DNA of 47,820 bases, taken from an uncultured archaeon (GTDB lineage: Archaea > Asgardarchaeota > Lokiarchaeia > Sigyniarchaeales > SOKP01). Shown here in pieces: positions 19,873 through 24,474 of this stretch. The translations under genes and the position numbers were made by a program. Below the pieces are notes generated by a model, which saw nothing but the letters and a program-made list of their open reading frames with translations, was not told the origin of the DNA and ran no database searches. The stretch spans positions 1 through 47,820 of the forward strand of contig CAZBPC010000018.1 of assembly GCA_964493715.1 (NCBI GenBank), read 5' to 3'. How positions within the stretch are numbered: the stretch's first letter is position 1; every line of letters begins with the position of its first letter.

Positions 19873-21909
19873 TTAATCTATATCAAACATACCTGAATAA
19901 GGTTCGAGAAAATGATTCTGACACATGGGACATGAATTATATTTTGAGAGCCATGCTGCTACACAAAGATAATGATATGTACTTCCACAAAACGGACAAG
20001 TAATAAGTTTATCTTTAGCAAAATTAATAAATTGGTGACAAACAGTGCACTGCACATCTGAAACTGCAATCCCTTGCTTTGTTTTAACTTTATTAGATAA
20101 AATTTCCTCAACCTTAGCTAATTCCACTTGATATAGTCCTAAACTTGAAGTTAAGTTGTTTAATTTTGCATTTAATTCTGTAATCCTTTCTCTTAATTCA
20201 TCCTCTGTCAATTTTTCAGCGAGAAATGAAGATAAGGCAAAATTTATGGGCAAACCCTCAAAATTTTCAGATTGTTTAGTAATTTCAGTGATTTCCGCAA
20301 ACAAAATAGATTCTTCATCAATTAAATCTTTAAAACTTTTAAATATTTTATTCAATAAAATAGTGAGTAGGAAGGTCAATTGTTGTTTTTTTCTATAAAA
20401 ATTGTCCTCCCAATGTTTAATAAGTTGATATGTATCGATATTTCGAAACTTATTTCTATCTATCTTCTCATAGATTTGGGATTTGATAATTTCGATTTTT
20501 GTCTTGTAGTCTCTTAATATTTCTTTTATTTTCTTAAGCTGGGGTAATTCTTCCCTAATTATGACAGAAGTCTTATCCTCATAATCACTCATCATGGCAT
20601 TAACTTCCAGTATCTTGGAATCAACAAATGTTCTTAATTCAACACGCAATCCCTCATCTTTTACACTTGTAAGATATGTCTGATATTCTTCTTTTCTACG
20701 TAATAATTCATCATTTAATCGTGATAATGTTTTTTTTAAGGTTTCTGTAATATTTTCATACGGTTTCAGGTATTTGTCAAATCTTAATACCCAGGTATCT
20801 ATCTCATCAATATTTGACGATATTGCATCTACTTTTTCTCTATAAGAATTAATTATTTTCACAAACTCATCTGTCGAAGTACCCTCAATTTGATTTAAGA
20901 GATTTTGAAGTTTTTTATCTATTGATAAAAAATAATATTCAATCAATTTTGGTAGAAATTCAGAAAATTTTTGTTGAGTTAATGATTCAAAATTAAAATC
21001 TTGTTTTTCCTCAAGTCTGTGTTTTTCATCATATTGTTTAACTTCATTAATGAGTCCTTCTAATTTATCCTCGATTAAAGAGACTATGAAAGGGCGCGTT
21101 TTATCTTTTAGATTTTGCACCACCTCCTTTCTTTCCAGTATGTTTATAAATTCTTCACTGGAATAATCTGCAAAGACATTATTTTTATACATCAAATAGA
21201 TAAGATCCGAATAGACTAATTCGTGATTCTGGTGATTTTCAATAAAATATTGAAAGAGTTCATTGAAATGAAAAGTAGGTAACGGTTCAGATCCTTTTTT
21301 CTTAACTTTTATAGGATCTGATTCAGATAGAGATCGTAAAAATTCAAGGGAACCCTTAATTTCATCCCATTTTTTCAATTCTAAGATTGATTCATTAAAT
21401 TGAAATCCTAAATTTTTAATCTTACTTGCTTGAATCCATAAGAATATCTCATCATCATATTGTTTTTCCACTTTATAGATAATCTTCTCAAGATATTGCC
21501 TTATCATATCACATTTTTTAAGCATTTCTGTGATAATTGTGAGGAAATCATCAAGAAATTTATTCTTCTTTAAAATTCTCTTTATGTTCCTACCATTAGC
21601 GGTGAGATTTGTTAAGTTTTGAGAAATAATTTTAAGTTCTTTTACAAGTTCAGATTTTAAATTATAGTAAAGATTCTTTGAACTTCTGAGTAAATAATCA
21701 TCAACAAATTGTTCTATTTGAGTAAGATATTCCTGATAAAACTCCTGGTGTTGTAGATGGAAATATTTCTTGAGGTAATCATTGATTTCACTTTCCTCCA
21801 CGTTTTCTTCCATAAATCGCGATAACTTCCTTTTTACATCAAGAATCTCATCTATAGTAAAACCTTTTATCTCTCTGGTATCATTAAACTTATTATTGAA
21901 AAGTAACAT
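19873..21909 (-). CDS. Coiled-coil protein with C-terminal C4HC3 RING-like finger (putative E3 ligase)
   Basis: CTVC-x13-CPFC-x4-H-x2-C-x10-CPMC with Trp four residues after the sixth ligand, preceded by a long helical region. Confidence 0.75.
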   Translation of the reverse strand: MLLFNNKFNDTREIKGFTIDEILDVKRKLSRFMEENVEESEINDYLKKYFHLQHQEFYQEYLTQIEQFVDDYLLRSSKNLYYNLKSELVKELKIISQNLTNLTANGRNIKRILKKNKFLDDFLTIITEMLKKCDMIRQYLEKIIYKVEKQYDDEIFLWIQASKIKNLGFQFNESILELKKWDEIKGSLEFLRSLSESDPIKVKKKGSEPLPTFHFNELFQYFIENHQNHELVYSDLIYLMYKNNVFADYSSEEFINILERKEVVQNLKDKTRPFIVSLIEDKLEGLINEVKQYDEKHRLEEKQDFNFESLTQQKFSEFLPKLIEYYFLSIDKKLQNLLNQIEGTSTDEFVKIINSYREKVDAISSNIDEIDTWVLRFDKYLKPYENITETLKKTLSRLNDELLRRKEEYQTYLTSVKDEGLRVELRTFVDSKILEVNAMMSDYEDKTSVIIREELPQLKKIKEILRDYKTKIEIIKSQIYEKIDRNKFRNIDTYQLIKHWEDNFYRKKQQLTFLLTILLNKIFKSFKDLIDEESILFAEITEITKQSENFEGLPINFALSSFLAEKLTEDELRERITELNAKLNNLTSSLGLYQVELAKVEEILSNKVKTKQGIAVSDVQCTVCHQFINFAKDKLITCPFCGSTYHYLCVAAWLSKYNSCPMCQNHFLEPYSGMFDID

Positions 21910-22061: not shown

Positions 22062-22679
22062 TTATTCTCCTAACTCATCAATCTCAATCGTTTTTTCTTG
22101 AGCACCGCTTTTGGTTATGATGAGTAAATCAATTCCGTTACCGGACATGGCATCTCTTTTTATAGCATTACTTATAGCTTTTACAACAAGTGCTTCTCCA
22201 GCTTTAATTGTCATATTCGGTTTGTATTCTGCTTCTAATATTCCAATAGATAATAACATTCCTGTTCCTGTTGTTCCATAATCATCAGGCATCAAAGAAC
22301 CAAGAGCATCCAAAGTATATAATTGCGGACCATCATCATCTAATCCTGCAACAACTAAATTTGTATATAATGGAGCTTGTTTTCGTGAATATAAGAAGTT
22401 TGAAATCAATTTAGCTAAACTTTTTGTCGTGATCTGTTTCCCCGCATCAAGTTCATAAAGATTTGCTTGAGCTTGAAGGATTTTAACTAAAATTTGGAAA
22501 TCTCCAATTAGCCCATATGCGGCTACTCCAATATTTTCAGTAATCTTAAAAACCTTCCTTGTTGCTTTATTTGTAACTGTATAACCCCAAGTTGCCCTGC
22601 GATCATTTCCAAGAATAACTCCATCCTTACATTTAATAGCAACGCCACAACTTCCTGGTACCATTATCTGCTGAGACAT
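22062..22679 (-). CDS. psmB: Proteasome beta-type subunit (Thr1 absent)
   Basis: KDGVILGNDRRAT, KVFKI, G...DFQ, GPQLYTLDALGS, TGTG and RDAMSGNGID. Confidence 0.9.
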   Translation of the reverse strand: MSQQIMVPGSCGVAIKCKDGVILGNDRRATWGYTVTNKATRKVFKITENIGVAAYGLIGDFQILVKILQAQANLYELDAGKQITTKSLAKLISNFLYSRKQAPLYTNLVVAGLDDDGPQLYTLDALGSLMPDDYGTTGTGMLLSIGILEAEYKPNMTIKAGEALVVKAISNAIKRDAMSGNGIDLLIITKSGAQEKTIEIDELGE

Positions 22680-23178
22680 TTTTATCTCTAATAAATTTTG
22701 TTTTATAGTTTTAAAGTACTATTTAGTATTAAATTAATGGGAATTAATAATTTTTTGTTTTAAATTATAATATTTTACTGATTAAACTGAAAAATCACGT
22801 TAACGTATCATCATCATATATTGAAGTAGTCTTTAAAATCTTGATATAATGAAAAATCAGCAGTATTCTGTCAATTTTTACCAATTATTTACTTTATGAC
22901 TAAGTTGTGATGATCACTAAATTGATCCCATGACATTTACCCATGATAAAGTCACTTGATAATATTTTTTTTAATTTCCCTTTACCCCATAATAAAACTA
23001 AATTAAATGCCCATTTCTTCAACATAACCCTTTGAATTACTTTGATACTAAAAAATTAAGTTCAACTTTTTCGTGTGATCAATCATCCGATGATCATAGA
23101 TGTTTACTCTTCAATCAAAACATAAAGTTTTTGTCGTGATTTTTTGTTGATTTAATCCCCCATCTTCTTCTCATATTG

Positions 23179-23194
23179 CCAAAAGATTTAAATA
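23179..23194 (+). promoter_or_regulatory. Putative BRE/TATA box for the histone gene
   Basis: CCAAAAGA followed by TTTAAATA (23187-23194), about 100 nt upstream of ATG 23294. The AT-rich context limits specificity. Confidence 0.4.
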
Positions 23195-23293
23195 ATCATT
23201 CGGATATAATATTAACTAAGAAACTCTATTAATAAACAAAAAAAAAGTAAAAATACACGAATTAAAAATTTTTAATTGTGGAGGAATAAGACC

Positions 23294-23541
23294 ATGGCTA
23301 AAAAGAAACATAGATCAAGAATCCTTTCGATTCTGAGTGTAGTTTTGCCTGGTCGCCAATAAGGAGATTAATGAAGCAGCAAGGTGCAAGCATCGTAGCA
23401 AGAAACGCAGTAGATCTTTTAATTGACCATCTCGAAAAGACTGCAACTGGTTTAACTGAACAAGCTCGCGCTTTTACCATGCATGCTAATCGTAAAAAAA
23501 TTACCAAAAACGATCTCCTATTGTCGATCAAGTATAAATAA
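23294..23541 (+). CDS. Archaeal histone (HMf-type fold), interrupted gene: join(23294..23313,23343..23541), 72 aa
   Basis: Spliced translation MAKKKHSFAWSPIRRLMKQQGASIVARNAVDLLIDHLEKTATGLTEQARAFTMHANRKKITKNDLLLSIKYK has PIRRLMK, GA..V, HA.RK.I...D. SD-like GGAGGA at 23280-23285. The ATG and the fold are in different frames unless 29 nt are removed. Confidence 0.9.
23314..23342 (+). other. Putative 29-nt bulge-helix-bulge (BHB) intron in histone pre-mRNA
   Basis: 4-bp central helix ACAT(23308-11)/GTGT(23337-40). 3-nt bulges AGA(23312-14) and AGT(23341-43). Intron stem TCA(A)GAATC/GATTCTGA. Exon stem GAA/TTT. Cutting after the second nucleotide of each bulge restores the frame. Confidence 0.8.
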
Positions 23542-23577
23542 CTATAAGATAAAGTTCTGCTAATTACAAATCCAATC

Positions 23578-23593
23578 TTTTTTTCCTTTTTTT
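23578..23593 (+). terminator. Oligo-T tract, putative archaeal terminator of the histone gene
   Basis: TTTTTTTCCTTTTTTT about 36 nt downstream of the histone stop. Confidence 0.45.
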
Positions 23594-23946
23594 ATATCTA
23601 AATTTGTTTAAAATACGATGTTAGTTTCATTTCTGTTGATTAAATACAAATAAAGCATGTATCATCAGTCCATTTGGACAAAAAAATTGTTTTCTTTTTT
23701 TTTTATTACTTCTTTATTTTAACAAAATTATGCTTTACAGAATTCAAAATTAATGTTCTAAATACCATAAAAATGAAAAACGACGCGCAACCGATATCTA
23801 CATTAATAAGGAGTTATTTCGACGATCTAAATACCTCTTATTAAAGATTCTATTCAATATATCCTCGAAATAGTCCTTCAAAATCTATAGAGATCGTTTA
23901 TAAATTCGACTTTCTTATCATTACTTGGGTTTTGTAATCTATAATC

Positions 23947-24474
23947 ATGTCAAGTTTTAAACTCAAAATAATTCTAACTGGCGCAGCGGCAGTCGGTAAG
24001 ACAGAGTTGGTTCAAAGATTCATCAAAAATCGTTTTGCAGCCAATTATAAATTGACCGTAGGCGTTGATATATTAACTAAGGATGTAGAATTTAGATCGG
24101 GTGAAATAGCAACTCTCTCAATATGGGATATTGGAGGCCAGCAAAGATTTGAGTTTATTCGAAGTACATTTTACAAAGGAGCTGCAGGGGCAATGTTAGT
24201 CTTTGATTTAACTCGTGAACAAACGTATGTAGAAACTCGCAAGTGGTTATCTGAAATTAAGCAATCAGCGGGAGAAAACATACCGTTTGTTTTGATCGGT
24301 AACAATGTAGATTTAGTAGAGGATGTGGGTGTGGTCATAGATCGTGAAGAAGCCAGAAGGTTCGCTGAAAGTGAAGGAAGCATTTACATTGAAACATCAT
24401 CGAAGACGGGGAAACACGTCGATGAATCTTTTACGGAGTTAACTCGACGGATTATTGATTCTCGATCTCAATAA
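23947..24474 (+). CDS. Rab-like small GTPase
   Basis: G1 GAAAVGKT, G2 YKLTVGVD, G3 WDIGGQQRF, FYKGAAGAMLVFD, variant G4 GNNVD, G5 ETSSK. No C-terminal Cys prenylation motif. Confidence 0.92.
   Translation: MSSFKLKIILTGAAAVGKTELVQRFIKNRFAANYKLTVGVDILTKDVEFRSGEIATLSIWDIGGQQRFEFIRSTFYKGAAGAMLVFDLTREQTYVETRKWLSEIKQSAGENIPFVLIGNNVDLVEDVGVVIDREEARRFAESEGSIYIETSSKTGKHVDESFTELTRRIIDSRSQ

Follow-up and report, generated by a model that had tools for sequence, protein, structure and literature searches.

A conserved histone gene of an Asgard archaeon very probably carries a tRNA-type intron of 29 nucleotides (nt) in its messenger RNA. The gene lies in a 47,820-nt stretch of contig CAZBPC010000018.1 (the window), to the forward strand of which all coordinates refer unless another contig is named; the host (genome label G000) is a member of the Promethearchaeota, a Lokiarchaeia-type Asgard archaeon. 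We read positions 23314-23342 as a bulge-helix-bulge (BHB) intron with a probability of about 0.9, and this reading is strongly supported by the comparison with related genomes. In the proposed route, a heteromeric EndA, encoded by two subunit genes, would cleave each bulge behind its second base; RtcB would then ligate the exons, so that CAU-AG joined to U-UUU would be read as a histone of 72 amino acids (aa). The unspliced transcript would encode no more than a 22-aa peptide, possibly along with a shortened product of 56 aa that begins at ATG 23371.

The insert, its fold and its distribution

The reading frames of the locus were determined first-hand from the sequence. The ATG at 23294 is preceded by a Shine-Dalgarno (SD)-like GGAGGAAT, which was unchanged in 23 of 23 aligned orthologous loci, and its frame encodes a 22-aa peptide terminated by TAA 23360-62. 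All coordinates that an earlier reading of the same DNA (the first-pass annotation) had given for this SD-preceded frame hold, and the sequence likewise bears out its statement that the histone fold is encoded in a different frame, which TAG 23311-13 blocks on the upstream side. This second frame opens at 23314, right after that TAG, and extends to TAA 23539-41; the earliest canonical start codon in it is ATG 23371, where a 56-aa open reading frame (ORF) is listed. Excision of 23314-23342 unites both frames and gives 72 aa in silico. Exon 2 matched PF00808 over positions 6-64/65 (E 3.3e-8), and with 34.1 bits against a cut-off of 21.4 it passes the family profile for archaeal histones of the HMf type. 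Four histone paralogues are encoded elsewhere in the genome, with 44-59% identity and with N-termini such as MAKKVFAWSP and MAAFAWSP, which illustrate how such a gene ordinarily starts; an intact second copy of this gene is absent, the closest paralogue being 59% identical.

The BHB predicted in the first-pass annotation was found in the window with its helices and bulges. Two 3-nt bulges lie on opposite strands around a 4-bp central helix, the four pairs of which are A-U, C-G, A-U and U-G, and this core is flanked by an exon-exon and an intron-intron helix. The inner stem (23315-23 with 23329-36), which had been described as 8 bp, holds one bulged A at 23317. Cutting the two bulges at symmetric positions gave the coding sequence of the intron-less orthologues, and the splice sites predicted within the bulges, with the 72-aa product, agreed with these orthologues in the boundaries and in the N-terminus. 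There are 146 possible excisions of 14-59 nt that would bring the histone frame into line with the ATG frame, and all of them were compared. A complete central helix (4/4) was found for two of these cuts, and only the cut at 23313/23314, with a length of 29, combined BHB geometry, both flanking helices and the N-terminus of the orthologues. The motif is therefore above chance. Across the genome, loose BHB geometry was found for about 6 in 10,000 position/length pairs (485,624 of 781.7 million). A scan of 23100-23750 against Rfam gave zero family matches.

The distribution of the insert among relatives was investigated by a DNA search, which found the orthologue in 33 congeneric genomes. The insert was present in six of them (G000, G004, G005, G023, G042 and G053), 26 lacked exactly these 29 nt, and one (G047) was unreadable because a contig end cuts the locus. 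The 26 insert-less genomes encode MAKKKH-S-FAWSP without a break, and exon 1 is co-linear with the intron-less orthologues, which have MAKKKH, then S, T or A, then FAWSP. In the one-genome-per-species collection (genome_contigs), 5 of 80 loci had the insert, 73 lacked it and 2 were unscored; on metagenome contigs, the insert was present in 9 of 80 loci and absent from 65, and 6 were unreadable. There were 12 distinct insert alleles, each of 29 nt. The predicted splice sites are fixed by the alleles with a 3' bulge AAU (G053, L218 and L231), because among the three positions possible for a 29-nt cut only 23313/23314, the one chosen in the first-pass annotation, retains the conserved Ser codon. 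The intron would be a recent, patchy gain within one genus.

The 12 distinct alleles were aligned and scored on the BHB of the first-pass annotation, with 500 shuffles for comparison. The data showed that 92.2% of the cells were paired across the alleles, against 86.1% in the shuffles, a value matched by 0 of 500. Five pairs had changed on both sides (reached in 18/500 shuffles), and 15 cells had both-side changes (reached in 0/500). When the partner was slid by 1-3 columns as a control, 17-51% of the cells were paired. All five double-changed pairs belong to the intron stem, where they make up 5 of its 8 pairs, and 93.8% of the cells of this stem were paired. The outer helix was paired in 100% of the cells in the 12 alleles (G-U or A-U, A-U, A-U), and three central pairs were kept in 12/12 alleles, either invariant or improved from U-G to C-G. 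An alignment of Asgard histone loci, proposed at the first pass as a check, thus turned out in favour of the intron: intron-less orthologues were found, and the intron helices covary.

Table 1. Positions of the predicted intron and associated features in the window, and loci with the second insert
Feature	Position or locus	Strand	Basis or remark
Shine-Dalgarno-like GGAGGAAT	23280..23287	+	upstream of start codon; read from sequence
Exon 1, 20 nt	23294..23313	+	ATG, five codons, first two bases of Ser codon
Outer (exon-exon) helix, 5' strand	23305..23307	+	pairs with 23344-23346; 3 bp
Central helix, 5' strand (exon)	23308..23311	+	pairs with 23337-23340 (intron)
5' bulge AGA	23312..23314	+	predicted cut 23313/23314; geometry
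Predicted BHB intron, 29 nt	23314..23342	+	exact absence in most relatives
Intron stem-loop	23315..23336	+	8 bp, bulged A at 23317, loop CUUUC 23324-28
3' bulge AGU	23341..23343	+	predicted cut 23342/23343; geometry
Exon 2, 199 nt	23343..23541	+	last Ser-codon base, histone fold, stop TAA 23539-41
Putative remnant (last codons and stop) of older resident histone allele	~23630..23653	+	flank identity to G006/G022
Second insert	L038, L039, L040, L131, L136, L143, L213, L215, L218, L220, L223, L225, L228, L231		

Two neighbouring ORFs were inspected by eye. The one at 22062-22679 (minus strand) looks like a proteasome beta subunit and the one at 23947-24474 (plus strand) like a small Ras/Rab-like GTPase; these neighbours are consistent with an Asgard genome.

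Allele history, further inserts and splicing enzymes

The flanks of the gene were compared with the intron-less genomes G006 and G022, to which they were 97% (23100-23287) and 96-99% (23641-23720) identical. Exon 2 was 96% identical to that of carrier G005 and 80-81% identical to those of G006 and G022. This mosaic over 23288-23653, with flanks like G006/G022, a coding part like G005 and the remnant listed in Table 1, points to allele replacement by recombination. Judged from this pattern, the intron-bearing allele evidently recombined into a lineage related to the intron-less genomes, and it would have reached the present genome by recombination into such a background.

The histone intron is probably not alone, as several mini-introns of this kind appear to lie in protein-coding genes of the lineage. 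A second insert (30, 34 or 35 nt) was found in 11 alleles of the same gene, between the R-K and K-I-T codons. It comprises several unrelated-looking sequence types and occurs with or without intron 1, and this diversity suggests repeated gain or fast turnover at the second site. Among the 5-6 cuts per allele that would restore the protein, only a single one shows BHB geometry, and this is always the same one; the central helix is 4/4 in eight alleles and 3/4 in three, with outer and inner helices present. Several of the second-site inserts contain in-frame stops, so frameshifting would be unable to rescue them. A third insert, of 30 nt, lies between G-A-S and I-V-A in L139, a more distant relative; of the eight cuts possible there, one yields a perfect BHB, with 4/4 central and 10/10 inner pairs. 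Some carriers have two inserts and three frames with all exons intact, and the window allele has intron 1 alone among the three insert sites.

Inserts were also found in other protein genes of the genome. The sole RtcB gene (locus L153) has a 29-nt insert at C2:12136-12164 on the minus strand, and its Pfam match falls into two pieces (1-47 and 48-426) that lie 29 nt apart in different frames. One of 12 tried cuts gave a 4/4 central and a 9/9 inner helix, and this cut restores the conserved G-V-G-Y-D-I-N-C. The same insert is present in G001, 31 congeneric genomes lack exactly 29 nt, and five matches were partial. RtcB, the presumed ligase, would therefore be needed for maturing its own mRNA. 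The nadE insert (30 nt, C39:8748-8777, locus L148) lies exactly at the break of the Pfam match (3-143/144-242). Relatives matched nadE at 64-69% identity; in six genomes the gene is shorter by 27 nt instead of 30, and in G016 it has 3 nt more. This comparison is only suggestive of an intron. The leuS insert (30 nt, C44:26027-26056, locus L149) lies at the break of the PF09334 match (4-46/48-135). Eight genomes, seven of them other congeners, are co-linear through it, and 28 are 26-30 nt shorter, mostly 30. The rtcB, nadE and leuS inserts share the geometry of the histone intron.

Three further BHB-shaped candidates of 29-30 nt, each without Pfam continuity across the break, were set aside as unproven. 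They are C28:34412-34441, with VWA_CoxE upstream and nothing downstream, C145:299-328, with a weak thiolase match, and one on C21 near 20733-20762, with AcnX downstream only.

Both a splicing endonuclease and an RtcB ligase are encoded in the genome. Two genes with an EndA domain, in the regions C5:38084-38308 and C58:18731-18976, matched PF01974 at 102.1 and 68.2 bits, with uninterrupted frames of 208 and 206 aa, their identity as EndA subunits being based on these two matches, and the single RtcB gene, split as described above, matched PF01139 at 484.5 bits. For Asgard archaea, an (alpha-beta)2 EndA with an L1 insert that is linked to broad specificity has been described (PMC5829648). A search with aragorn gave 27 tRNAs, 12 of which have introns of 11-39 nt, four of them of 29-30 nt. 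Because only 27 tRNAs were found, the genome probably contains more disrupted tRNA genes. Several of the tRNA introns appear at non-canonical positions. The tRNA-Gly GCC at C24:22458-22559 has a 30-nt intron with a UCAAGA/UCUUGA stem and an AAAUC loop, which recalls histone intron 1 in stem and loop and is only a resemblance.

It is a tentative proposal, with the odds somewhat against it, that the EndA-RtcB pathway forms a general and evolutionarily active mRNA-splicing system in this genus. Mini BHB introns would then be gained, lost and moved from one species to another by allele replacement, would occupy three sites in one histone gene and would also occur in essential genes, including rtcB.

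Opposing observations and alternative explanations

Several observations weigh against an intron at 23314-23342. First, the BHB is not the most stable fold: for 51 nt, ViennaRNA gave -4.5 kcal/mol for the BHB conformer and -9.6 kcal/mol for the minimum free energy (MFE) structure, and the minimum-energy fold differed from the BHB in 12/12 alleles. The MFE structure of 61 nt is a different hairpin, the z-score of which is modest (-2.22). Second, the pair 23308-23340 is standard in just 4 of the 12 alleles, the window included, and is A.G or A.C in the other eight. The first-pass annotation had called the BHB canonical; this applies to the window, where all four central pairs form, but not to the alleles as a group, most of which are relaxed BHBs by their first central pair. 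Third, the frame of the ATG runs through the insert without a stop codon in each of the 12 alleles, which favours translational recoding (see below).

Fourth, the metatranscriptome runs X1, X2, X3 and X20, the contigs of which hold at most 0.36 of the sampled words, were searched at 90% likeness, and zero contigs from these four runs cover 23200-23339 or join across the insert. Contigs matching the locus numbered 0 in X1, 3 in X2, 1 in X3 and 1 in X20. Two X2 contigs start at 23340, and the X3 match starts at 23341 behind 13 loose letters, which look like the 3' end of 16S rRNA and would then make the contig a chimera; as no DNA run continued across this place, nothing was drawn from these matches. 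Fifth, a blind scan of the genome for a BHB together with ORFs gave no excess over controls in which the 3' cut was slid by 1-4 nt (120 against 100-121, with at least 150 nt open on each side). BHB introns in this genome would therefore be a handful and not hundreds, and the support for introns rests on hand-verified cases, the scan hits having served only to nominate candidates for checking by hand.

Among the alternatives, it is quite improbable that the gene is dead or dying, a 29-nt DNA insertion having inactivated the histone without ever being removed. The four other paralogues would make such a loss tolerable, and the lack of spliced RNA in the four runs is in keeping with it. We compared 10 carriers (45 pairs; L155 and L208, in which the intron-2 site was not located, were left out) in the in-silico spliced frame. 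The mean proportion of synonymous differences (pS) was 0.481 and that of nonsynonymous differences (pN) 0.016, which gave a pN/pS of about 0.03. Because pN is far below pS, the gene is not decaying, and by this measure the predicted spliced histone frame is under strong purifying selection. Between carriers, the codons of exon 1 and of SFAWSPIRRL had changed synonymously only. The constant insert length of 29 nt with compensatory changes also argues against decay, as do the carriers of two inserts, which keep every exon intact across three frames.

Translational recoding, by which the ATG frame would be read through the insert and then shifted by -1 on the U-run 23343-46, or by a hop, is very improbable. 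Besides the stop-free insert, the four-U run stands at the very point where the two frames must meet. However, the X XXY YYZ heptamer is absent at 23341-47, where the sequence is AGUUUUG and frame 0 reads GUA GUU UUG, and the 10 extra residues that recoding would add have no counterpart in the intron-less orthologues. The insert evolves as paired RNA, while the peptide of frame 0 varies freely. Moreover, the second and third histone inserts and those of nadE and leuS either hold in-frame stops or are in frame, and a frameshift would be no rescue for them.

It is extremely improbable that only the truncated 56-aa histone is made from ATG 23371 and that the upstream part is irrelevant. An SD-like AGGAG (23363-67) does lie 3 nt upstream of this ATG and its ORF, but AGGAG here simply spells two Arg codons, and carriers L223 and L192 encode these residues with other codons and so lack it. 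The upstream codons are under purifying selection, and the truncated protein would miss most of helix alpha-1 in comparison with the paralogues. An error of assembly or sequencing has a negligible chance: nothing was found in its favour, and an assembly artefact was ruled out by the independent assemblies that carry the insert (6 species-level genomes and 9 metagenome contigs, with 12 distinct alleles).

Comparison with known systems

In the literature outside subscription journals, no BHB intron was found reported in a histone gene or in any Asgard protein-coding gene, and BHB introns of protein genes were found only in cbf5 of Crenarchaeota. The remark in the first-pass annotation that it knew of no described histone case agrees with this search. 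Judged from their sequences, the genes for the histone, the RNA ligase, NAD synthetase and leucyl-tRNA synthetase appear to depend on tRNA-type splicing, in a lineage and, for the histone, in a gene where a BHB mRNA intron will surprise specialists. Splicing might also serve to regulate histone synthesis, as the first-pass annotation had suggested. Gene callers will call such genes truncated or frameshifted. An rtcB gene that needs RtcB would form a self-dependent loop, and the gain, loss and lateral spread of introns would be observable inside one genus. If the reading is true, the closest archaeal relatives of eukaryotes have an mRNA-splicing route without group II introns or a spliceosome.

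The nearest known case is cbf5 of Desulfurococcales and Sulfolobales, which has a pre-mRNA BHB intron like the one proposed for the histone gene; Watanabe 2002 and Yoshinari 2006 reportedly deal with the cbf5 intron. For Crenarchaeota, lineage-specific gain and loss of this intron, tied to hetero-oligomeric EndA, has been described (PMC2738675). In contrast to cbf5, the host gene here is a histone, and the phylum is Asgard, not TACK. Up to three intron sites occur here in one coding sequence of 216 nt and are polymorphic within one genus, further putative introns lie in rtcB, nadE and leuS of the same genome, and splicing is deduced from the genes.

The BHB introns of archaeal tRNA and rRNA have the hBHBh' geometry and the size range in common with the histone intron, and the same enzymes are presumed to act on them. 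The difference is that the host RNA here is an mRNA, so that excision must restore the reading frame. Phage T4 gene 60 also has a short non-coding gap in a coding sequence that is skipped to give one protein. There, however, the ribosome bypasses the gap between matched take-off and landing codons, whereas the histone insert has a BHB with covariation and sister introns with stops.

In eukaryotes, the HAC1/XBP1 mRNA is cleaved by IRE1 and ligated by RtcB or Trl1; Tanaka et al. 2011 is said to concern RtcB. As proposed here for the histone gene, a short frame-shifting mRNA intron is removed independently of the spliceosome, with ligation of the RtcB type. If the EndA-RtcB pathway does form a general mRNA-splicing system, the archaeal relatives of eukaryotes would possess a functioning equivalent of HAC1/XBP1-type splicing. 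The two systems differ in the nuclease and its substrate: HAC1/XBP1 splicing relies on the stress-regulated IRE1, whose targets are twin stem-loops, whereas EndA acting on a BHB is proposed for the histone mRNA.
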